A stretch of 64,000 nt of DNA from Parcubacteria group bacterium LiPW_30. Its GTDB lineage: Bacteria > Patescibacteriota > Minisyncoccia > Phycocordibacterales > VMEP01. The notes under the pieces are model-generated. The model was given only the letters and a program-made list of their open reading frames with translations. It was not told the origin of the DNA and searched no databases. Shown one piece after another: positions 2,682-58,452 of the stretch (its first letter is position 1; each line of letters starts with the position of its first letter). The stretch spans positions 415,184 to 479,183 of the forward strand of contig VMEP01000001.1 in NCBI GenBank assembly GCA_007375595.1. Reading direction: 5' to 3'. Position numbers and translations under genes: made by a program.

Positions 2682-2759
2682 TACTCGCCCTTAAAATGCA
2701 TTACGGAGCCTGACGGATCTTCTCAAAAATATCAGTTGTATTTCTTTAAACACCCCCTA

Positions 2760-2848
2760 CTTTTCCCTTTAAAAACATTGCGCAGTGCGACCGGCACGAG
2801 CATAGCAAAAACTTAGCAAAGTTTTATGCGCGTTTTTAAAGGGAAAAG
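2760..2848 (-). repeat. MITE-like intergenic element, copy 1 (inverted relative to copies 2 and 3)
   Basis: Terminal 17-19 bp inverted repeats (t)acttttccctttaaaaac / gtttttaaagggaaaag(ta). The reverse-complemented core (..gctatgctcg..gcaatgtttttaaa) is homologous to the elements at 10712-10803 and 58364-58452. An extra partial copy, cattacggagcctgacgga, lies at 2698-2716. Confidence 0.6.
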
Positions 2849-2910
2849 TAAAAAGAAAGGCTGTTGCAAAATCTAGCGGATTATAGTATGCTCACGGGGA
2901 ATTAAATCAT

Positions 2911-5164: not shown

Positions 5165-5174
5165 CAAACAAATT

Positions 5175-5207
5175 AAAAGACGCTCTAGAAAGAGCGTCTT
5201 TTAATTT
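5175..5207 (+). terminator. terminator of the peroxiredoxin gene; also the left copy of the tRNA-Leu-associated direct repeat
   Basis: Hairpin agacgctct-aga-agagcgtct followed by tttaatttt. Confidence 0.6.
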
Positions 5208-5229
5208 TCGGTGCCGGGAGGGAGAATCG
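5194..5229. repeat. 36-bp direct repeat (copy 1) identical to the 3' end and flank of the tRNA-Leu gene
   Basis: gcgtcttttaattttcggtgccgggagggagaatcg is identical to 5494-5529, exactly 300 bp away. A third partial copy, gtgccgggagggagaatcggtcac, lies at 5373-5396. Confidence 0.8.
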
Positions 5230-5493
5230 GTCACAACTCTTCTGCTTCGATAAATCTACGCGACGAAGGTCGTTACCACGCCTCACTGTCGCCTTGCGAC
5301 ATGTTCCGGCTTTCGATTCTCCCCGCGAGTGAAGCAGTTCACTCTCTCTCCCGTCCACTCACTTTGTTCGTTGTGCCGGGAGGGAGAATCGGTCACGCAT
5401 AATTTTCTGCTGAAAATTTGCGCGACCCCGCCTTGGCACGTCTGCCTCCGGCTTTCGATTCTCTCGCCAAAAATTAAAAAACACCCAAAGAGG

Positions 5494-5529
5494 GCGTCTT
5501 TTAATTTTCGGTGCCGGGAGGGAGAATCG
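5494..5529. repeat. 36-bp direct repeat (copy 2) overlapping the genuine 3' end of tRNA-Leu
   Basis: See copy 1. This copy contains the real acceptor/T-arm 3' half of the tRNA plus 18 nt of downstream flank. Confidence 0.8.
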
Positions 5530-5593
5530 AACTCCCATGGATTACTCCGCACGATTTTGAGTCGTGTGCGTCTACCAATTCCGCCATCCCGGC
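5512..5593 (-). tRNA. tRNA-Leu (CAA), type II
   Basis: Reverse complement is GCCGGGATGGCGGAATTGGTAGACGCACACGACTCAAAATCGTGCGGAGTAATCCATGGGAGTTCGATTCTCCCTCCCGGCA. Anticodon loop CTCAAAA, long variable arm. CCA is not fully encoded (CCG). Confidence 0.8.
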
Positions 5594-5742
5594 ATTTATC
5601 CTAAAAATAGGATTATCGATATTCTAGGGGACTAAAGCCCAAAAATCAATTTTTTGGATAAAATTTTTGTGATATAATAATCAACATAAAGAAAATTATA
5701 TTTTAGATATATTTTAATTTTCGCACCTTAATATTAAATTTT

Positions 5743-6744: not shown

Positions 6745-8255
6745 CTTCCGCCCTTTAAAAACTTAGCGAATTGATTAGCTAACCCCTCTTGGGCGTGTAA
6801 TTTTATTTGTTTCCTAGCAAAAGCAGTTTTAGAAAATTCAAGCCACTTTGTTGATGGTTTGCTTCCTTCTTTGGTTATTATTTCCACAATGTCAGCATTC
6901 TTTAATTTGGTATTAAGCGCGACTAGTTTTCCATTAACTTTTGCTCCAAAGACGTGATTTCCAACATCAGAGTGAATTGCATACGCAAAATCAATTGGTG
7001 AGGATTCTTCTGGAAGCTCAATAACATCACCCTTTGGCGTGAAAACGAAAACGCGATTCTTAAAGAAATCTGTTTTTAAGTGTTCCAAAAATTCACCACT
7101 TTTAGAAACATTTTTTTGCCATTCTGTTAGTTCTTGAATCCACTCAAGTTTTTTACTCATGTGTTCCTCTTTTGATTTGTTTTTACCGACCTCTTTATAT
7201 CCCAAATGTGAGGCAATACCGAACTCTGCCTCTTCGTGCATTTCTTTTGTTCTTATTTGAATTTCCACCGTTCCCCCATCACCAGAAAAAACCGTTGTGT
7301 GAATACTTTGATACCCGTTTGGTTTTGGTAGGGCAATATAATCTTTTATTCTTCCAGGAAGGGGACGCCATTTTTTATGAATTACCCCAAGGGCACGATA
7401 ACAATCTTCAATTGTTGGCACGACAATACGTAAGGCAACAAGATCATATATCTTATCAATATCCATTTCGTGTCGTTTCAGTTTGAGATATAAGCTCCAA
7501 AGATGTTTTACGCGTGAATCAGTTTTAAAATTTTTTATTCCACTTATAGCCAACTCCTTTCTAAGAGAGCGTTTTATTTTTTCTGCTTCTAGCTCACTTG
7601 CCGTGGCGCGCTCCTTTAAAAGTTTTTTAACTTGTTCAAATTCTTTTGGGTACGCATATTCAAAAGAATAATCTTCGAGTTCTCCTTGAATTCTTCCGAT
7701 ACCAAGGCGATTGGCAATTGGGGCGTATATCTCAAGTGTTTCTAGTGCGATGCGTTTTCGTTTTGCCTCCGGTACGTGTTTTAAGGTACTTACGTTATGA
7801 AGACGGTCTGCGAGTTTAATAATAATAACTCGAGCATCTTGTCCCGTTGCAATAAAGAATTTACGAAGACTCTCAACGTGTCTTTCTACTCCGTGATACT
7901 TTAGTTTTCCGAGTTTGGTGACGCCCTTAACTAGAAAAGAAATTTCCGGACCAAACTCTTTTAATATTTCTTCGTCTGAAACATTTGAATCTTCAACCGT
8001 GTCATGAAGAAGTCCTGCGGCGATAGTTTTCGCATCCATATGAAGGAACGCAAGGTTTTTAGCAACTTCTACGACGTGAGATTCAAAATACGATTCTCCA
8101 GAAAAACGTTTTTGGTCGCCGTGTGATTTTTTTGCGAAAGAATAAGCCCTTTCAATAAGCGCCTCGTTTTCCTTGGTCCTTTTGGACATGTGATCGATAA
8201 TGTCTTTCGCAGAGCTCATAAAAACAATAGTAGAGCCTCGCGCTTGTTTTCGCAA
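6741..8255 (-). CDS. bifunctional (p)ppGpp synthetase/hydrolase RelA/SpoT family (short form without ACT)
   Basis: HD domain (HGDQKRFSGESYFESH..LLHDTVED). Synthetase domain (DLVALRIVVPTIEDCY..PGRIKDYIALPKPNGYQSIHTTV). TGS region (FVFTPKGDVIELPEESSPIDFAYAIHSDVG). Start may be at Met-13. Confidence 0.9.
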   Translation of the reverse strand: MRKQARGSTIVFMSSAKDIIDHMSKRTKENEALIERAYSFAKKSHGDQKRFSGESYFESHVVEVAKNLAFLHMDAKTIAAGLLHDTVEDSNVSDEEILKEFGPEISFLVKGVTKLGKLKYHGVERHVESLRKFFIATGQDARVIIIKLADRLHNVSTLKHVPEAKRKRIALETLEIYAPIANRLGIGRIQGELEDYSFEYAYPKEFEQVKKLLKERATASELEAEKIKRSLRKELAISGIKNFKTDSRVKHLWSLYLKLKRHEMDIDKIYDLVALRIVVPTIEDCYRALGVIHKKWRPLPGRIKDYIALPKPNGYQSIHTTVFSGDGGTVEIQIRTKEMHEEAEFGIASHLGYKEVGKNKSKEEHMSKKLEWIQELTEWQKNVSKSGEFLEHLKTDFFKNRVFVFTPKGDVIELPEESSPIDFAYAIHSDVGNHVFGAKVNGKLVALNTKLKNADIVEIITKEGSKPSTKWLEFSKTAFARKQIKLHAQEGLANQFAKFLKGGS

Positions 8256-8295
8256 ATTAATTATCCTATTTTCTTTCCCCCTTTCTTCTCTTCTA

Positions 8296-8357
8296 GTTTA
8301 TGCGGGTTATGCATTGGGCACGCTTTGTTACTACATCTTTCTGGAATTGTTTTTGGT
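8296..8357. repeat. intergenic duplicate of the 3' end of topA (62 bp, 1 mismatch)
   Basis: tagtttatgcgggttatgcattgggcaCgctttgttactacatctttctggaattgtttttg repeats 8492-8553, which encodes the topA C-terminus ..CPMHNPHKLAK. Confidence 0.8.
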
Positions 8358-8440
8358 CACAAGTCGGTTTTGTTCCGCCGAACAAAACCGCTTTCGACCC
8401 CGGCTCGCGATTTCGTCTGCTGACGAAATATCGCTCCGCC

Positions 8441-8470
8441 CCACAAAAACTAATTGCGTTTGCAACGCAA
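8441..8470 (-). terminator. rho-independent terminator of topA
   Basis: On the minus strand: hairpin ttgcgtt-gca-aacgcaa followed by ttagttttt. Two further hairpins follow: cggttttgttc-cgcc-gaacaaaaccg at 8366-8391 and cgatttcgtc..gacgaaatatcg near 8409-8437. Confidence 0.6.
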
Positions 8471-8480
8471 CACTGAACTC

Positions 8481-10736
8481 TTATTTCGCTAGTTTATGCG
8501 GGTTATGCATTGGGCATGCTTTGTTACTACATCTTTCTGGAATTGTTTTTGTGCCTTCCATCATTAGTGAATCGCAGAGCTTACAGATTTTACCTGTTGG
8601 TCTTGCCTTGATAGCGTTTTTACAGCCTGGATAGTCTGAACATGAATAGAAGACACCAAAACGGCCACGGCGTTCAATCATTTCTCCTTTTTTACATGTT
8701 GGACAAGTAACCCCAGTTTTTCCTTTGGCTTCTTCTTCGGCGCTTTTTTTAATGAATTTACACTTTGGATAATTTGCGCAAGCGATAAATTTACCGAAGC
8801 GTCCTTCACGCTCGATTAGCTTTCCTTTTCCGCAAGAAGGACAAATCTCTCCTGTTTCCTTTGGTCCTTCAAGTTCAGTCCCGTCTAATTTTCTTGCGCC
8901 AATACAATCTGGAAATTTTGAACAAGAAAGGAATTTTCCACTTTTACTTAGTTTTATAACCATTAAGCTTCCACACTTTGGACATTTAATGCTTGGGTCA
9001 GCGTCTCCTAGGTTTGTTAATTTGGCGATTTTATCTTTTGACTTTACGTCTTTAGAAAATGGTTTGTAGAAATCACGAAGAGTTTTTTCGTAATCACGTT
9101 TGCCGTCGGCAATATCATCCAACTTATCTTCCATTTCAGCAGTGAAAGAATCACTAATATAGTTTTCAAAATTTTGTTCAAGGAAAGTACTAACAACTTC
9201 GCCAACGTCTGTTCCGCGAAGAGATCGTCCTTCTTTTTCCACATACTCACGCTCAAGGATTGTTTTGATAATCGCCGCGTAAGTTGAAGGGCGACCGATT
9301 CCTCTTTTTTCGAGTTCTTTAATAAGACCAGCTTCTGTGTAGCGATTTGGTGGTTCAGTTTGTTTTTCTTCTTCGTCTATAGAGATGAGCGCTAGTGGTT
9401 CGTCCACCGAAGTTACCGGAAGCTCAACATCATCTTCTCTTGAATCTTTGTCTGCCTCGAGCCACCCCAAGAATAATATTCGGTGTCCCGTTGCAGTGAA
9501 ATCGGGAATATCACCCTTTTTTATGTTTGCTGTTATTTTAGTACGCAACATTACAGCATCTGTCATTTGAGAGGCGACGGTGCGTTGCCATATTAAATGA
9601 TAAAGTTTTTTCTCTGCATCGTTTGAACCACGCTCTTCAAAAGAAGCGTCAGTTGGACGAATTGCCTCGTGCGCCTCTTGGGCGTTTTTGCTTTTTGTTT
9701 TAAATACGCGGGCTGTTACAAATTTTTCTCCAAACCTCTTACCAACCATGGCAATGATTTGGGCTTGAGCTTCCTTTGATAGGTTTGGGCTATCGGTACG
9801 CATGTAGGTGATATAACCAGCTTCATAAAGTCGTTGAGCAAGAGACATCGTTCTTGATGGCGCAAAACCAAGTCTTGAGCTTGCCGCTTGTTGTAATGTC
9901 GATGTTATAAATGGTGGGCGAGGGGAGCGAGATGTTTCAGATTCTTCTAGTTTTTTTACAAACCAATCTCCTTTCTTTCCGGAAGTAAGAATTTTTTTAA
10001 CAACATCTTCATCTCGCGGTTCATCCACACACGTAACAGTAAGAGACGCTTTCTTCTTCGTTTTTACATCGGCTCGTATAACCCAGTATTTTTCTGGCAC
10101 AAATGCGCGGATTTCACGTTCGCGTTCAATTACAATACGCAAAGCAGGTGACTGCACGCGTCCAGCGGAAAGTCCGTAGCGAACCTTTTTCCAAATAAGA
10201 CCAGAAAGGTCGTAGCCGAAAAGTCGGTCTAGTACACGACGCGCTTCCTGCGCTTTTCGTAAATCTGTATCAATGTCACGTGGGTGCTTGAGAGCTTCCT
10301 TTACGGCCGTTTCGGTAATTTCATTAAAAACAATTCTTTTAATAGGGGTTTTCTTTTTTACCGACGACATCAAGATTTCCTTCACGTGCCAAGCAATAGC
10401 TTCTCCTTCACGGTCGGGGTCGGAAGCAAGGATTATTTCAGATGCCTTAGAAGCTTCTTTTTGGAGCTCAGCAACAACCTTTTCTTTGCCCTTAGATATT
10501 TCGTAACGAGGAATAAAACCACCCTCAATATCGATGGCGGTTTTGTTACTTTTTGGCAAATCTCGAACGTGTCCAACGCTCGCCAAAACGGTATAATCCT
10601 TCCCAACATATTTGGAAATTGTTTTTGATTTTGCTGGTGATTCAACTATAAGAAGTTTAGTCATTGACATAACTTGTACATTATTACATTTATTTTTGCA
10701 AATTTTTGAAATACTTTCGTTTTTAAAAACACGCAT
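8481..10736 (-). CDS. topA: DNA topoisomerase I with C-terminal zinc-ribbon repeats
   Basis: TOPRIM N-terminus LLIVESPAKSKTI..DPDREGEAIAWH. Active-site region GYITYMRTDS. Three or four C-terminal CPxCG zinc ribbons. The true start is probably MSMTKLL near 10670. Confidence 0.9.
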   Translation of the reverse strand: MRVFKNESISKICKNKCNNVQVMSMTKLLIVESPAKSKTISKYVGKDYTVLASVGHVRDLPKSNKTAIDIEGGFIPRYEISKGKEKVVAELQKEASKASEIILASDPDREGEAIAWHVKEILMSSVKKKTPIKRIVFNEITETAVKEALKHPRDIDTDLRKAQEARRVLDRLFGYDLSGLIWKKVRYGLSAGRVQSPALRIVIEREREIRAFVPEKYWVIRADVKTKKKASLTVTCVDEPRDEDVVKKILTSGKKGDWFVKKLEESETSRSPRPPFITSTLQQAASSRLGFAPSRTMSLAQRLYEAGYITYMRTDSPNLSKEAQAQIIAMVGKRFGEKFVTARVFKTKSKNAQEAHEAIRPTDASFEERGSNDAEKKLYHLIWQRTVASQMTDAVMLRTKITANIKKGDIPDFTATGHRILFLGWLEADKDSREDDVELPVTSVDEPLALISIDEEEKQTEPPNRYTEAGLIKELEKRGIGRPSTYAAIIKTILEREYVEKEGRSLRGTDVGEVVSTFLEQNFENYISDSFTAEMEDKLDDIADGKRDYEKTLRDFYKPFSKDVKSKDKIAKLTNLGDADPSIKCPKCGSLMVIKLSKSGKFLSCSKFPDCIGARKLDGTELEGPKETGEICPSCGKGKLIEREGRFGKFIACANYPKCKFIKKSAEEEAKGKTGVTCPTCKKGEMIERRGRFGVFYSCSDYPGCKNAIKARPTGKICKLCDSLMMEGTKTIPERCSNKACPMHNPHKLAK

Positions 10737-10803
10737 ATCTGTCTGCTGACAGATTGCTATACTCGCCTCGTCAGGCTCCGTAATGTTTTTAAAAACGAAA
10801 GTA
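10712..10803 (+). repeat. MITE-like intergenic element, copy 2
   Basis: 19-bp terminal inverted repeats tactttcgtttttaaaaac / gtttttaaaaacgaaagta, each containing the self-complementary 12-mer GTTTTTAAAAAC. Internal extended -10-like ttgcTATACTcgc (10758-10763), palindrome tctgtc-tgct-gacaga and conserved cgtcaggctccgtaatg. Confidence 0.65.
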
Positions 10804-10835
10804 TGGTGGTAGGAATTAGCCCTTTAAAATTAGTA

Positions 10836-10868
10836 ATAAAAAAACTCGCGTGAAGCGAGTTTTTTTAT
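10836..10868 (-). terminator. bidirectional rho-independent terminator (pilin gene / possible short plus-strand transcript)
   Basis: aaaaaaactcgcgtgaagcgagttttttt: a hairpin flanked by A-runs and T-runs. Confidence 0.65.
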
Positions 10869-10884
10869 TAAAGCCTATAAAAAA

Positions 10885-17373: not shown

Positions 17374-19289
17374 TTAATATAATTCGTACAATTTTTGTTG
17401 GAATAATTCTATTTTTAATAAATCCAGGTGTTTCTTTTGGCGCATCAATTAAAACATACACTGATTCTTCTGGTTTAAACCCTCGTTCCTCCCCACCATA
17501 TGTTGGCGGCTATGTCGTAGAGACGTTTACTTCATCGGGGACTTTTACTCCACCTGCTGGAGTCACCTCCGTGGATTACCTTGTTGTTGCCGGTGGTGGA
17601 GGCGGAGGCTCTGTTAATGGTGGGGCTGGTGGGGCTGGTGGTTTTCGAACTGCTAGTAATTATGTTGTGGTACCAAATAACCCAGTGACCGTCGTTGTTG
17701 GGGCTGGTGGGGCGAAAGGTAATCCATACGGTGGGAATAATGGATATGATTCTATTTTTGATTCTATTATATCGATAGGTGGTGGCGGTGGCTCTGGTGG
17801 TGGAGGTGCTGTTGAGGCAAAGGTTGGTGGTTCTGGTGGTTCGGGTGGATATTGGGTTTCTGGCGCTGCTGGCACCTCGGGGCAAGGTTATGCGGGTGGC
17901 ACTGGTGCTGGTGGATATCCAATAACTGGTGCTGGTGGAGGTGGAGGTGCCGGGGAAGCAGGAGACTCCCCTTTGTATGATTACACAGCAACTGATGGGG
18001 GTAATGGGCTTTCTTCTTTTATATCCGGGGTTAATACTTATTATGCTGGCGGTGGTGGCGGATGGGGGTGGGAGCAAGAACTTAGTTTAGAAAGAGATGG
18101 ACTCGGGGGCTTGGGTGGTGGCGGTTCAGGTAGAGTTAGCGGAGATGCAGGCGATGGTAGCGTAAACACTGGCGGTGGTGGCGGTGGTTCAAGTGAAAGT
18201 GGTGGCAACGGCGGGTCCGGCATCGTCATATTGAGGTACCGTAGCCCAGGTACTGTAAACATTACCTCAAGTATTTCATCGTCTTGGGTGGTTACCGGCC
18301 CGGCGACGATTACCGGCTCGGGCACCTCGCAGTCCTCGCCATCACAGCCCGCAGGAACATACACCATCACCTGGGGCGAGGTGTCCGGTTACACCGCTCC
18401 TGCGACTCAGAGCCTCACACTCGCTTCTGCTGGCACAATCACGTTTAACGGTACTTATGTGGCATTAACACCACCAACTACCACTTTCTCTGCTTCGCCA
18501 GCAACTATTTCGTATAACACATCCTCAACACTTAATTGGAGTTCAACAGATGCAACATCTTGTACTGCCGGGGGTGATTGGTCGGGAACAAAAGATATAT
18601 CAGGTAGTGTTAGTACTGGAAATTTAACAACATCTAAAACATACACACTCTACTGTACGGGCCCTGGAGGAAATTCTGTTACACAATCAGCGGCGGTAAC
18701 AGTAGAATCAAACCCACCAACTACTTCAATCACTAGTCCAACAATCGACATCACAATCCCTGAAAACCAAGAGCAACAATTTACAGGAGAAGCAGTAGAC
18801 ACAGATGGGACGATAGTTGGATATCAATGGAGAATGGGAAATTGTACAACAGGTACCGTTCTTAGTTCTTTGATAAGTTTTGCCAGATCATTTACACCAG
18901 GAACATATGATGTTTATTTCAGGGCCCAAGATAACAACGGGTTTTGGTCATTAGATTGCCCGACACGCAGAATTGATGTTGTCGTAAGTAATCAAATACC
19001 TGGTGTTTGCGGGGCTTCTAATGGTGTGCCAACTCAAAAGAAACCAACGTCAAATCTTTGTAGTACAGTAGGCTTACCGGAACCCGTTGTCTCGCCGGAA
19101 AATATTAGTGTCTTACCAGAAAGCGGCAACCCTTCTTCATGGTCATGGACATGCTCTGGAGAAAACGGTGGCGCAGATGCTGCTTGTGGAACCGCGACTT
19201 CGTGTGGTGATAATAAATGCCAGGCATCTAAAGGAGAAAACCCCTCAACATGTAAGGCTGATTGCAAGATAAAGTTTTTTGAGTTTTAG
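17370..19289 (+). CDS. secreted glycine-rich repeat protein with Ig-like middle domains and a Cys-rich C-terminal module
   Basis: Signal peptide. Gly-rich block with VDYLVVAGGGGGGS..GGAGGAGG..GGNGGSGIVILRY (glycine-rich-protein type repeats). Then Thr/Ser-rich beta domains. C-terminus has 10 Cys (CGASNG..LCSTVG..WSWTCSGENGG..ACGTATSCGDNKC..CKADCK). Confidence 0.75.
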   Translation: MINIIRTIFVGIILFLINPGVSFGASIKTYTDSSGLNPRSSPPYVGGYVVETFTSSGTFTPPAGVTSVDYLVVAGGGGGGSVNGGAGGAGGFRTASNYVVVPNNPVTVVVGAGGAKGNPYGGNNGYDSIFDSIISIGGGGGSGGGGAVEAKVGGSGGSGGYWVSGAAGTSGQGYAGGTGAGGYPITGAGGGGGAGEAGDSPLYDYTATDGGNGLSSFISGVNTYYAGGGGGWGWEQELSLERDGLGGLGGGGSGRVSGDAGDGSVNTGGGGGGSSESGGNGGSGIVILRYRSPGTVNITSSISSSWVVTGPATITGSGTSQSSPSQPAGTYTITWGEVSGYTAPATQSLTLASAGTITFNGTYVALTPPTTTFSASPATISYNTSSTLNWSSTDATSCTAGGDWSGTKDISGSVSTGNLTTSKTYTLYCTGPGGNSVTQSAAVTVESNPPTTSITSPTIDITIPENQEQQFTGEAVDTDGTIVGYQWRMGNCTTGTVLSSLISFARSFTPGTYDVYFRAQDNNGFWSLDCPTRRIDVVVSNQIPGVCGASNGVPTQKKPTSNLCSTVGLPEPVVSPENISVLPESGNPSSWSWTCSGENGGADAACGTATSCGDNKCQASKGENPSTCKADCKIKFFEF

Positions 19290-24105: not shown

Positions 24106-24153
24106 TTTTACCTATTCTGAGGAACGTCGGAGGGGCGGAATAAAAGTAATCAA

Positions 24154-24198
24154 AAAAGCCTTGTGGAGTTTGGTGGTATAATTTACGAGACCGAGGAG
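24154..24198 (+). promoter_or_regulatory. conserved promoter-like module P (copy A) with extended -10 TGGTATAAT
   Basis: aaaagccttgtggagtttggtggTATAATttacgagaccgaggag, preceded at fixed 26-nt spacing by box ttctgaggaacgtcgga (24115-24131). Confidence 0.5.
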
Positions 24199-25795: not shown

Positions 25796-25851
25796 TAATA
25801 AATCGACTCTCATTCAGAGGAACGTCGAAATGGTACGATTAGAGATGTCAG

Positions 25852-25897
25852 AAAAGCCTTGTGGGGCTTGATGGGCAAATATACGAGACCGAAGAGG
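25852..25897 (+). promoter_or_regulatory. conserved promoter-like module P (copy B)
   Basis: aaaagccttgtggggcttgatgggcaaatatacgagaccgaagagg, preceded at 26-nt spacing by box ttcagaggaacgtcgaa (25813-25829). Confidence 0.45.
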
Positions 25898-29963: not shown

Positions 29964-30009
29964 AAAAACCTTGTGGGGCTTGATGGTATAATTTATGAGA
30001 CCGAGGGGG
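29964..30009 (+). promoter_or_regulatory. conserved promoter-like module P (copy C)
   Basis: aaaaaccttgtggggcttgatggTATAATttatgagaccgaggggg. A fourth partial copy, aaaaagccttgtgtgg, lies at 30558-30573. Confidence 0.5.
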
Positions 30010-30035
30010 TCAGTAAATTATCGTAGAATAATATA

Positions 30036-45673: not shown

Positions 45674-45840
45674 TTGAAAGGATGAATTATTGTGTAAAAA
45701 AATACAAAGAATATTTTGATTTGATATACTTAATGTATTAAAAATTAATCTAAAAATTTAAATTTTATGGCAAAAGGAAACGATCGCCCACGTAAGGAAA
45801 AAAAGAAACCAAAGAAGAATAAGTAGTAATGATAGGAACA

Positions 45841-45911
45841 GAAAATCCGCCCAGCACTTAATTTTCAAATCGAGTTTGTCTAATTTAAAATTAAGTGCTG
45901 GGCGGATTTTC
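45841..45911 (+). other. perfect 25-bp inverted repeat (long hairpin, 21-nt loop) followed by a T-run
   Basis: gaaaatccgcccagcacttaatttt ...21 nt... aaaattaagtgctgggcggattttc, then ..gattttttacgg. It lies downstream of a 19-codon basic sORF (45767-45826) and upstream of cspA. Confidence 0.7.
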
Positions 45912-46017
45912 TAATTCTTGATTTTTTACGGCTTTTATGTTATACATATAGGCAAGCACAGGAGCAGAGTCGAGTTTCGTAGTAGCAATTTAAGCAGCAA
46001 TAAATATAGAAATCAAT

Positions 46018-47797: not shown

Positions 47798-47825
47798 ATT
47801 CTAGTATTTTGCAAAATACTAGAAT
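47798..47825. promoter_or_regulatory. 28-bp perfect palindrome, putative ArsR-family operator overlapping the -35 of the arsR-like gene promoter
   Basis: attctagtattttgcaaaatactagaat. A -10 ggTGtATAATtt follows 18 nt downstream, and the regulator gene starts at 47870. Confidence 0.6.
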
Positions 47826-47869
47826 AGATAAACGGGGTGGTGTATAATTTATTTACTAAATATAAATAG

Positions 47870-48142
47870 ATGGCTATCAATTACCGGAAAATTGAAAGAA
47901 TTATTAAAGGGTTTGCCAACCATAGGCGGATTCAAATTCTCGATGTATTGAAAAAAGAACCAGAGCTTTCAGTGGACGATATAGCAAAGAAGCTTAATAT
48001 AGGGTATATGAACGCATCAGACCACGTACGCAAGATGACCATTTCTGGACTAGTCATAAAACGTAGCGATGGTAACAGTGTTCGCCACAAGTTAACACCA
48101 TTAGCAGAATCTATTCTAGTATTTTGCAAAAAACTAGAATGA
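47870..48142 (+). CDS. ArsR/SmtB-family transcriptional regulator
   Basis: FANHRRIQILDVLKKEPELSVDDIAKKLNIGYMNASDHVRKMTISGLV: ArsR HTH pattern. Confidence 0.8.
   Translation: MAINYRKIERIIKGFANHRRIQILDVLKKEPELSVDDIAKKLNIGYMNASDHVRKMTISGLVIKRSDGNSVRHKLTPLAESILVFCKKLE
48113..48139. promoter_or_regulatory. second copy of the operator palindrome (1 mismatch) inside the 3' end of the regulator gene, immediately before the flavoprotein start
   Basis: attctagtattttgcaaaaaactagaat. The regulator TGA (48140-48142) overlaps the downstream ATG (48139). Confidence 0.55.
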
Positions 48143-53769: not shown

Positions 53770-55560
53770 ATGGAAATTAGAAATATAGCTATTATCGCCC
53801 ACGTTGACCACGGCAAGACCACCTTGACCGATGCTTTGATGCGTCAAACTGGTGTTATGAAGGAAGGTGTCACAATGGACTCAAATGCGCTTGAACTTGA
53901 GCGCGGGATTACTATTTATGCAAAGAATACATCAGTTCCATATAAAGGAACGAAAATAAATATTGTTGATACTCCAGGACACGCCGATTTCGGATCTGAA
54001 GTTGAGCGAGTTTTGCGTTCTATAGACTCAGTGCTTTTGGTCGTAGACGCTCAGGAAGGACCAATGCCACAGACTCGTTTCGTTTTGAAAAAATCTCTTG
54101 AGCTTGGATTAAAGCCAATTGTTGTTATTAATAAAATTGATAAACCAGCTGCAGACCCAAAGCACTGTGAAGATTTGGTATTAGAGCTTTTCTTGGAACT
54201 TGGGGCCAATGATGAGCAAGCAGATTTTCCAATTGTGTACGCAATAGGTAGACAAGGTATCGCCAAGACAAATTTAAACGACGATTCTAAAGACCTCACT
54301 CCGTTACTTGATACAATTTTGGAGAAAGTTCCAGCAGCTTCATCTGCCGATTTAATAAACAAGACTCTAGAATTTCAACCATTCAATTTAGGTTACGATA
54401 ATTTCCTTGGACGCCTTGCAGTAGGACGTGTTTATCAAGGGGTGCTTAAGACAAATACAAATTTGTTTATAAAAAAACCAACAGGAGAAACACGAACTGG
54501 AAAAGTTTTAAAAATTTTTACGTTTAACGGGACTGATCGCGTGGAAGAAAAAGAGGCGGTGGCTGGCGATATTGTCTTAATTTCTGGTTTGCCAGATATT
54601 TATATTGGAGAAACAATCACAGACGACACAAATTCTGAGCCTCTTCCTGCAATAAATATTGATGAGCCAACAATTGCTCTTTCTTTTTTGGTTAATAATT
54701 CTCCTTTTGCTGGGCGCGAGGGTAAATATGTTACATCACGACAAATACGTGAGTACTTGGAACGAGAGCTTGAAGTTAACGTCGGGCTAAAGGTTGATTT
54801 TGACTCAGCTGGTGGTGATAGCTTCCGTGTTTTTGGTCGTGGTGAATTACACATTTCTATTTTGCTCGAAAACATGCGACGCGCTGGATATGAAGTGCAG
54901 GTTTCCCAACCACAGGCAATCATTCGAGAAATAAATGGCGAGAAACAAGAACCATTTGAGGAAGTTGTTGTTGATACCCCCAGTGAATTTCAGGGAGCAA
55001 TTATTGAGCGCTTGAGCATGAGAGGTTTTCTTATGAAGAATATGCACCACGCTGAGAAAACAGTGCGCATGATTTTTGAAGGACCAACGCGTGGCCTTTT
55101 GGGTTATCGCGGACAGTTTGTTATTGATACAAAAGGGGAGGGTATTTTGGCCGCACATTTTATTGGATTTAAACCATATGCAGGAGAAATAAAGAAACGC
55201 GCAGTAGGCTCAATGATTTCTATGGCAGCTGGCAAAACACTTGGTTTTTCATTATGGACACTACAAGAACGCGGTGTTTTGTATATTAGTCCCGCAACTG
55301 AAGTTTACGAAGGAATGGTTATTGGAAATACTTCTAAGGGAGAAGAAATGAACGTTAACCCAACAAAAGGAAAACAACTTTCAAACATGCGTTCGTCTGG
55401 TACAGATGAAGCCATTAACTTGGTGCCACCATTTACGCTCTCTATTGAAAGAGGGCTTGAGGTTATGGCGGAAGATGAATATTTGGAAATTACCCCGGGG
55501 AATGTGCGTTTACGAAAACAGTTTTTAACAGAAAACGATCGTACAAAATCACGTCGATAA
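53770..55560 (+). CDS. typA: GTP-binding protein TypA/BipA
   Basis: [19 protein letters not shown] (G1), DTPGHADF (G3), NKIDK (G4). Full EF-G-like domain layout at the length typical of BipA. Confidence 0.95.
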
Positions 55561-55569
55561 AAATATCAA

Positions 55570-55602
55570 ACAAAAACCCTCGCCTATGCGAGGGTTTTTG
55601 TT
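55570..55602 (+). terminator. rho-independent terminator of typA
   Basis: aaaaaccctcgcctatgcgagggtttttgtttg. Confidence 0.7.
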
Positions 55603-55621
55603 TGATAATATTGCTTGATTA

Positions 55622-58363: not shown

Positions 58364-58452
58364 GGCTTTTGTTTTTAAAAACACGATAAAATTCTGTTGA
58401 ATTTTTCTATACTCGCGCCAAGCGCTCCGTAATGTTTTTAAAAATAAAAGCC
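58364..58452 (+). repeat. MITE-like intergenic element, copy 3 (upstream of the glycerate kinase gene)
   Basis: Terminal IRs ggcttttgtttttaaaaac / gtttttaaaaataaaagcc (17/19). Internal ttctATACTcgc (58408-58413) and gctccgtaatgtttttaaaaa shared with copy 2. Confidence 0.65.

Follow-up and report, generated by a model that had tools for sequence, protein, structure and literature searches.

Three intergenic copies of a palindromic element of about 90 bp lie in a 64,000-nucleotide stretch of Parcubacteria group bacterium LiPW_30 (contig VMEP01000001.1, positions 415,184 to 479,183 of the forward strand; this whole stretch is called the window below), and we put at roughly 0.6 the probability that they belong to a large family of palindromic DNA repeats, mobile and non-autonomous, whose range is restricted to the Patescibacteria lineage. 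The element is a unit of approximately 95-130 bp, in which an outer stem of free sequence (P1, 15-35 bp) encloses a conserved core of about 55 nt made of two hairpins (P2 and P3) and a short helix at the junction. Near-identical strains differ in having or lacking the entire unit (P1, core and a short 3' tail); close relatives hold different elements in one and the same spacer, units are nested in P3 loops or arranged in tandem arrays, and the core is lost to leave a stem-only hairpin or is found in either orientation between unchanged P1 arms. Genomes of the Patescibacteria, or candidate phyla radiation (CPR), are tiny and tightly packed, and to our knowledge almost nothing is known of any mobile or repetitive DNA in them. 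The present family has no genes of its own; it is gained and lost, undergoes nesting and inversion, and is tolerated even inside a gene for an essential-type rRNA methyltransferase.

A branched fold common to a family of repeats

The three copies, first proposed in an earlier note made from the letters of this DNA alone, were confirmed both by a gapped pattern derived from them (AAAAAC..CTATRCTC..CGYAATGTTTTT; 3 matches in the window against 0.00 expected from 100 shuffles) and by a covariance model (CM) built on 67 relatives, which gave 116 bits for copy 2, 105 for copy 1 and 91 for copy 3, the next match in the window scoring 26. Copy 1 has its sense on the minus strand and so is oriented opposite to copies 2 and 3. 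The outer inverted repeats, previously given as terminal inverted repeats (TIRs) of 17-19 bp, are present and measure 19-20 bp, but they are not sequence-conserved TIRs. The 12-mer GTTTTTAAAAAC that had been placed at each end of all copies is exact at both ends in copy 2 only; copy 3 has it once exactly and once with a mismatch, copy 1 has TTTAAAAAC/GTTTTTAAA only, and with up to one mismatch allowed there are 6 matches in the window against 1.7 expected. Similarly, an internal core of TATACT and CTCCGTAATG is shared by copies 2 and 3, but copy 1 has TATGCT and CTGCGCAATG instead.

Whichever strand is folded, and whether as RNA or as DNA, all three copies take up one common shape (z -6 to -11; for copy 1, -6.5 as RNA and -7.9 as DNA), and folding with DNA parameters was equally strong on both strands (z -7 to -11). 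In this shape P1, the supposed TIR, closes a three-way junction with the inner hairpins P2 and P3. Compensatory differences were found in every helix among the three window copies alone, the P2 arms for instance reading ATCTGTC/GACAGAT, AAAATTC/GAATTTT and AAAACTT/AAGTTTT. An alignment of 67 family sequences (alignment A2) analysed with RNAalifold gave 32 pairs, 23 of them with compensatory changes; 96.2% of cells were paired, compared to 71% in shuffled alignments and 39-50% with slid partners, and the covariation score was 0.62 (shuffled 0.16, slid partners approximately 0.1). Single-sided changes were rare relative to double changes. An apparent A/G-U pair between alignment columns 32 and 89 was probably mis-assigned, because column 89 covaries with a position of the TATACT box instead.

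Both the box and its surroundings are part of this pairing. The R of the box pairs with the Y of CGYAA (G-C 110 times, A-T 3), the second box position and the K of AAKG form another pair (A-T 50, C-G 61, C-T 2, A-G 0), and the "TG" of what had been read as an extended -10 promoter is a covarying pair of helix P2. The TATACT box and GTTTTTAAAAAC are local sequence variants of paired positions, neither promoter nor operator; they are not family-wide, as variants such as TCTGCT exist and the box covaries as a pair.

G.U pairs were no commoner than A.C (21-26 against 25 among about 2,000 paired cells), which indicates that the pairing is Watson-Crick on both strands. In P1 of the metagenome set there were 22 sense-strand wobbles and 51 antisense ones; with no consistent bias, the balance of G.U and A.C was rejected as a guide to which strand folds. 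Since the pattern is strand-symmetric, the orientation of copies is random and both strands fold equally well, this Watson-Crick-only covariation appears to favour a structure at the DNA level (single-stranded or cruciform), or palindrome-templated correction, over an RNA made from one strand.

The earlier note had proposed that copies be counted beyond the window, and many were found across the Patescibacteria. A scan of species-representative genomes gave 88 loci, of which about 70 were true copies, nearly all of them in metagenome-assembled genomes (MAGs) of Patescibacteria, and about 18 were unstructured chance matches in other phyla. One MAG had approximately 13 pattern matches and at least 14 elements when partial members of arrays were counted. 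A looser pattern, which did not require the AAAAAC/GTTTTT ends, found at least 120 matches in metagenomes, and those listed include Hainich and other groundwater, aquifer and wetland samples. From copies found by the CM or by the looser pattern the family consensus is CACGnATA-P2-yTmTGCTCG-P3-CTsCGyAAkG, with loops UGCU (P2) and CGUC (P3). The sequence of P1 varies by copy and by subfamily, its complementarity being preserved via double changes. Orientation relative to neighbouring genes was random (11 (-,-), 8 (+,+), 6 convergent and 4 divergent).

In some MAGs the element forms tandem arrays, alternating with a second palindromic repeat of about 140 bp. This second repeat (CCACGAAAAGAATAGTTCCACAAAAGAGGCTAGCTCGAGCGA...CTCTTTTGTGGAAGCTATTCTT) alternates with the element in the CAZCND01 and DAOQRR01 MAGs (L012-L018, L023, L041, L064 and L069-L072), where head-to-tail arrays of the element itself use a 15-nt spacer, GGTAGCTGTATTTCA.

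We did not find the family described in the literature on MITEs (miniature transposable elements with inverted repeats), REP (repetitive extragenic palindromic) sequences or palindromic repeats of CPR/Patescibacteria, in a search that was incomplete and is no proof of novelty; apparently it is undescribed so far. A 2024 review of MITEs does not mention Patescibacteria.

Variation between close relatives and in-frame copies

Presence at orthologous sites was the test that the earlier note had set for mobility, and both presence and content differ among near-identical strains and close species. One case is the spacer of copy 2, between a pilin-like gene and topA. The window and four further loci (L109-L112) carry a block of about 113 nt here, consisting of P1, core and the tail GGTGGTAGGAATTAGCCC, while L113, L114 and L116, which come from three other samples and encode the identical pilin protein, are without any element and have intact neighbouring genes. 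A 96% relative (L095/L096) has the copy-2 element (at 2874-3076 in L095 and 831-1033 in L096) with a unit of about 110 nt from a distantly related family (family B) nested in its P3 loop. The genomes that differ by this nested insertion have 91-95% nucleotide identity. Further away, L097 (90% TopA identity) has the stem only (ACATTTCTGTTTTTAAAAACAAAAATGT), L008 (84% nucleotide identity) has a similar stem with a different core, and a 70% relative (L098) has just a plain terminator, AAAAACGCCCTTCGGGGCGTTTTT.

At the spacer of copy 1, between a family-4 uracil-DNA glycosylase (UDG) gene and rpmG, strain contigs that are 99% identical to the window (L001-L003) hold an intact other element, E0 (CM 94.9 bits in L001). 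In the window, copy 1 and a tail of about 44 nt stand in place of the 5' two-thirds of E0; the stretch next to copy 1 (2716-2756) is missing from these strain contigs and arrived with copy 1. The partial copy that had been noted at 2698-2716 is thus real, but it is the 3' remnant of E0 and not a piece of copy 1, and it makes a fourth element in the window. The break in E0 falls in its P3 loop, and as the breakpoints of both E0 and the nested family-B unit lie in the CGTC loop of P3, this suggests a hairpin-loop hotspot. At the spacer of copy 3, before the glycerate kinase/ppsA genes, a relative of 90% nucleotide identity (L019) has two other, unrelated family members in place of copy 3.

The stem-only alleles (L097, and L119 described below) raised the idea that the outer stem was a pre-existing hairpin into which cores insert. 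This was weakened by the truly empty allele, by finding no stem-only copies among 38 elements of the CAZCND/DAOQRR type (AAGATT…AATCTT stem) at the loci fetched, and by the presence of only one solo hairpin across all fetched loci. Stem-only alleles fit better with loss of the core from a complete element.

The element was also found within a coding sequence. In rsmE, the gene for the 16S rRNA m3U1498 methyltransferase, it lies in frame and free of stop codons just before the GPEGGW motif (L010, L028, L031, L044). Approximately half of 120 RsmE homologues carry it, and their lengths are bimodal (about 230 and about 254 aa). The long forms have the element in either orientation with the flanks encoded by P1 unchanged (for example ..FEMH[CGGWRAEHSKFSAENYVR]ISKDNSP and ..FETH[GYFSTEKFLVLAPSRSQG]VSKDNSP), and frame variants, deletion remnants and empty alleles also occur among the homologues. 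Direct reading of rsmE DNA gave a filled allele on the minus strand (L120, CM 70 bits), an inverted one on the plus strand (L121, 67.5 bits) and a stem-only one (L119). As the two orientations encode unrelated peptides, conservation must be at the level of the nucleic acid and not of the protein.

Probable mobility, its possible route and the alternatives

The conserved branched fold points to specific recognition machinery, and we infer the involvement of a DNA enzyme that recognises structure. The feature recognised would be the fold. An enzyme whose gene lies elsewhere in the genome would move the element in trans, with its folded single-stranded or cruciform DNA as substrate, and the likeliest kind would be a structure-specific recombinase or a nickase-transposase of HUH/Y1 type. 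Copying would be restricted to copies that still fold and template switching within the palindrome would re-perfect the arms; jointly, these effects would leave covariation that is Watson-Crick-only and seen on both strands. Once an element is in place, its core may be flipped or deleted when the P1 arms recombine or when replication slips between them.

Several observations weigh against such mobility. No mobilising enzyme came to light: clustering of 458 open reading frames (ORFs) from approximately 70 loci gave only syntenic housekeeping clusters, with no recurrent, multi-copy or transposase-like ORF within 8 kb of the copies. The target-site duplications (TSDs) that might have flanked the inverted repeats were not seen as variable-sequence duplications; flanking direct repeats averaged 2.3 nt compared to 2.0 in permuted controls, the excess being due to one recurring motif, TCGCTC, directly outside both P1 arms in one large subfamily, and the sole clean pair of empty and filled sites has at most a TTAA-like 4-mer. 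On the viral contigs searched the strict pattern had no matches and the relaxed pattern had 9, none of which passed the CM, leaving zero confirmed copies. Several genomes have only 1-2 pattern matches per contig of about 700 kb, and some sites (rsmE) look anciently and vertically retained; low copy number and vertical retention are as compatible with a domesticated or functional element as with a selfish one. The lack of a wobble bias is indirect evidence, as frequent inversion of the core could also purge G.U pairs from an RNA, and the UGCU and CGUC loops and the junction, all of them conserved, could be a signal at the protein or RNA level.

This last point leads to the strongest alternative, which we nevertheless hold to be rather unlikely: that the element is a structured RNA module acting in cis after transcription, for instance to terminate in both directions, to offer RNase III a site for processing or to stabilise mRNA 3' ends. 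By analogy with ERIC (enterobacterial repetitive intergenic consensus) and Correia elements, by which mRNA decay is altered, and with the same reserve, the repeat could spread by mobility or recombination and be retained for the effect of its three-way-junction RNA on neighbouring transcripts. The very strong covariation and the conservation of loop and junction nucleotides across deep lineages would suit this, as would the usual start of copies 0-80 nt past a stop codon, the filling of the whole spacer between convergent genes in L044, L066 and L080, and the A-run and T-run beside the core in many subfamilies, which resemble bidirectional intrinsic terminators; L098 has its plain terminator AAAAACGCCCTTCGGGGCGTTTTT in the pilin-topA spacer. 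Perfect stems of 20-30 bp would also suit RNase III, for which Correia and ERIC provide precedents (PMC10969869). However, G.U pairs no commoner than A.C are unusual for a selected RNA, orientation is random with some copies in divergent promoter spacers, and both orientations occur within rsmE mRNA, so that the transcribed strand differs between lineages. No intrinsic terminator (defined as a GC-rich hairpin with a T-run starting 0-2 nt after it) was called at the three window copies, where 9 nt separate the U-run from the P3 hairpin; the only call was a separate canonical terminator next to copy 2 (10834-10870), and the neighbouring genes are intact in element-free strains.

Known RNA families gave no match. 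An Rfam 15 scan of the window at gathering thresholds found tRNAs only, a scan of the three copies at E<=10 gave generic miRNA-hairpin noise far under threshold, and there was no match to an Rfam ribozyme (hammerhead, twister, twister-sister, pistol and hatchet included). By inspection the cores of self-cleaving ribozymes (hammerhead CUGAUGA/GAAA and others) are absent on both strands, and a self-cleaving ribozyme was rejected.

Much less probable is an inverton, in which an invertase would act on the P1 inverted repeats and flip the core, phase-varying neighbouring genes. The two core orientations between identical P1-encoded flanks in RsmE homologues speak for it, and invertons typically have inverted repeats of 20-30 bp, but no orientation polymorphism of the core was seen among 7 same-strain contigs spanning copy 2, there is no adjacent invertase gene and no conserved promoter in the core, and the internal hairpins and their covariation are left unexplained. 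Inversion of a hairpin loop between long stems also arises passively via recombination.

We regard as very improbable that the copies are functionless quasi-palindromes, the relics of one ancient insertion family whose stems were perfected by intrastrand template switching and which have no present mobility or function. Strand-symmetric, Watson-Crick-only compensation is indeed expected from palindrome-templated correction, and core loss and inversion can be passive hairpin events. However, the empty site beside a 100% identical flanking protein with the 113-nt block inserted as a unit, the near-identical copies at many loci in single MAGs and the nested insertion between such similar genomes do not fit with relics, and template switching does not explain unpaired loop and junction bases that are conserved across classes.

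The weakest alternative, for which we see hardly any chance, is that of the earlier note, an outward extended -10 promoter (TGnTATACT) between two palindromic 12-mers for a dimeric regulator: TATACT/TATGCT does have A at position 2 and T at position 6, TG stands one base upstream in about half of the copies, and the nearby rpmG appears from its sequence to use TTGCAA-N17-TATGCT, but most members have TATGCT as the box and many have TCTGCT, TCCGCT or TCGTGCT instead (which therefore lose the essential A at -11), two of its positions and the TG covary as base pairs, GTTTTTAAAAAC is confined to the subfamily of the window genome and absent from most of the family (the inner stem of other subfamilies being AGGA/TCTT, GAAATG/CATTTC, GCAGAG/CTCTGC and others), no two-hexamer (-35/-10) promoter was called inside any window copy, and copies are randomly oriented, with copy 2 facing the 3' end of a convergent gene and others inside rsmE. 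As the function of the family the promoter/operator model is effectively excluded.

Among known systems, the closest analogues of the mobile palindromic repeat proposed here would be the Rickettsia palindromic elements (RPEs) for in-frame insertion, REPINs (paired inverted REP sequences) for hairpins moved in trans, and ERIC and Correia elements for polymorphic palindromes with internal insertions. From all of these the element differs in its outer stem of free sequence with pairing kept and in the conserved branched junction at its apex. Like it, RPEs are palindromic, gene-less and about 100-150 bp long, in a host-dependent lineage with reduced genomes, and they occur between genes and also in frame and stop-free inside conserved protein genes (PMC10969869), as the element does in rsmE. 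Unlike RPEs, the element has a conserved three-way-junction core inside its stem of variable sequence and occurs in both orientations at one coding site, with one coding host gene so far compared to dozens; no sequence homology is expected because the lineages are unrelated. REPINs and REPs are likewise non-autonomous, hairpin-forming and intergenic, about 100 nt long, mostly vertical in inheritance and clustered or in tandem, and a single-copy RAYT (REP-associated tyrosine transposase, HUH Y1) encoded elsewhere is presumed to recognise REPINs in the form of folded single-stranded DNA (PMC3116915, PMC3337134). A REPIN is, however, two inverted copies of one short REP with a conserved GTAG, whereas P2 and P3 of the element differ from each other, GTAG is lacking and the conserved bases lie in the junction. 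ERIC and Correia/NEMIS elements share with it the imperfect palindrome of about 100-150 bp, both orientations, a copy number polymorphic between strains and size variants arising via internal insertions at fixed points, and their transcripts can be processed by RNase III or RNase E (PMC10969869); their arm sequence is conserved, and Correia also has TA duplications and TIRs like those of insertion sequences, whereas the arms of the element vary and keep their pairing.

Classic MITEs have sequence-conserved TIRs as transposase binding sites and a variable TSD of fixed length, and the element has neither; of the MITE-like mobile family proposed in the earlier note, the many copies and their variation between strains stand. 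No classic TIR, variable TSD or nearby transposase was found. Integron attC sites and the attP of CTX phage resemble the element in conserving structure over sequence, with covarying stems and possibly a branched variable terminal structure, and recognition of the hairpin is proposed for all of them. However, attC has boxes (RYYYAAC/GTTRRRY) at the base of its stem and stands in cassette arrays next to intI, whereas the conserved bases of the element are at the apex junction; TAAAAAC/GTTTTTA occurs in one subfamily only and internally in the stem. Its copies stand dispersed between housekeeping genes, without cassette arrays or a neighbouring integrase, and attC was rejected. TIGR-Tas arrays, frequent in CPR as stem-loop guide arrays (PMC12045711), also have variable palindromic stems around conserved short motifs, but the loop segments of the element are covarying hairpins; boxes C (RUGAUGA) and D (CUGA), which in TIGR-Tas flank two spacers of 8-12 nt, are missing from alignment A2, and there are no spacers, adjacent tas gene or regular array, so this candidate too was rejected.

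More speculatively, and with rather low probability, the core of about 55 nt within its free-sequence stem may be the substrate on which a new system of mobility or recombination acts, one guided by the structure of DNA (or RNA) and common across CPR. The enzyme would recognise the branched hairpin, insert, flip or excise it, and set one module in the hairpin loop of another; the modules of families A, B and C have the P2 hairpin in common. If this is true, a major uncultured radiation would harbour a hairpin-targeted mobile element of a new class, or else a functional nucleic-acid fold that is new, and if the fold is an enzyme substrate, a new structure-guided chemistry of DNA insertion is possible.

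The copies also have practical consequences. Assemblies break at them (contig ends at L108, L046 and L053, with several loci starting or stopping within an element) and gene callers are misled, public calls of topA ranging from 716 to 781 aa with starts inside or upstream of/beyond the element (L095, L096, L109-L116). The element could be used as a strain-typing marker for uncultured groundwater CPR.

Coordinates and other features of the window

Positions of the copies, their parts and a distant relative in the window.
Feature	Position	Strand	Evidence or remark
E0, 3' remnant	2682-2715	-	P3 loop through CTCCGTAATG to P1 3' arm GCATTTTAAGGGCGAGTA
Copy 1, G-rich 3' tail and spacer GGGGGTGTTTAAAGAAATACAACTGATATTTTTGAGAAGATC	2716-2756	-	alignment of window with L001/L003
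Copy 1, full element	2757-2851	-	sequence; three-way-junction fold; CM 105 bits
Copy 1, P1 5' arm	2851-2832	-	
Copy 1, core	2831-2777	-	
Copy 1, P2 hairpin	2805-2829	-	
Copy 1, P3 hairpin	2785-2797	-	
Copy 1, P1 3' arm	2776-2757	-	
Family B unit, distant relative	5372-5474	+	CM 26 bits, E ~4e-4; beside tRNA-Leu
Copy 2, full element	10711-10804	+	
Copy 2, P1 5' arm ATACTTTCGTTTTTAAAAAC	10711-10730	+	sequence, fold
Copy 2, core	10731-10784	+	CM 116 bits, covariation
Copy 2, P2 hairpin	10733-10757	+	
Copy 2, TATACT box	10758-10763	+	within junction helix P3a
Copy 2, P3 hairpin	10765-10776	+	followed by CTCCGTAATG
Copy 2, P1 3' arm GTTTTTAAAAACGAAAGTAT	10785-10804	+	
Copy 2, 18-nt G-rich 3' tail GGTGGTAGGAATTAGCCC	10805-10822	+	empty vs filled alleles; part of the block absent in L113, L114, L116
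Copy 3, full element	58364-58452	+	CM 91 bits, fold
Copy 3, P1 5' arm	58364-58382	+	
Copy 3, P2 hairpin	58385-58407	+	
Copy 3, TATACT box	58408-58413	+	
Copy 3, P3 hairpin	58415-58425	+	
Copy 3, P1 3' arm	58434-58452	+	

The pilin-like gene at copy 2, into the 3' end of which that copy is directed, is convergent and lies downstream of dprA, and the gene on the other side of copy 3 from glycerate kinase/ppsA is hypothetical. MiaA of the window is identically encoded on Hainich groundwater metagenome contigs, and the best-named homologues of its TopA are from Paceibacterota/Parcubacteria; the window accordingly belongs to a CPR/Patescibacteria genome.

The family B unit of the window has the P2 module in common with the element and a P3-like hairpin, while its junctions and outer stem differ; its core is also the one nested in L095. 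It stands near a tRNA-Leu(CAA) gene on the minus strand (5510-5593), the 3' end of which (GTGCCGGGAGGGAGAATCG) is present three times (5211, 5373 and 5511). Between these repeats (window 5170-5600) are two units of about 140-160 nt, both starting GGTCAC, of which the second carries the family B core; the region gives the impression that two small insertions were made one after the other at the 3' end of the tRNA, with target duplication. Where the window has tRNA-Leu and the family-B units, L095 has a LAGLIDADG_3 homing-endonuclease gene (8021-8346) beside parB.

Between the topA stop codon and a relA/spoT-HD gene there is a block of 196 nt (8293-8488), where L095 has a spacer of 5 nt. It consists of 63 nt that repeat the end of topA (3' end; 98% identity with 8489-8551) and about 133 nt starting GGTCAC, which contain a hairpin (GGTTTTGTTCCGCCGAACAAAACC) and a P2-like hairpin (CGCGATTTCGTCTGCTGACGAAATATCG). 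The block represents another related type of element, the third, and its target duplication is long.

Two near-perfect intergenic hairpins without a core (45840-45912 and 55559-55612; arms of 34 nt and 25 nt, loops of 4-5 nt) could represent either long terminators or other palindromic elements of which just the stem is left. A palindromic 28-mer, ATTCTAGTATTTTGCAAAATACTAGAAT, occurs twice (47798-47829 and 48109-48140) on either side of an ORF of about 90 aa and could provide the operator sites of an autoregulated small regulator. Three segments of 50-85 nt (24114-24198, 25812-25896 and 29964-30012) are 74-86% identical and are probably conserved motifs of paralogous genes; they are not obviously the template and variable regions of a diversity-generating retroelement, as their differences are not limited to A positions. 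Finally, a glycine-rich coding stretch of GGT/GGC repeats (17595-18204), with 13 imperfect repeats of 31 nt, lies within a large ORF.

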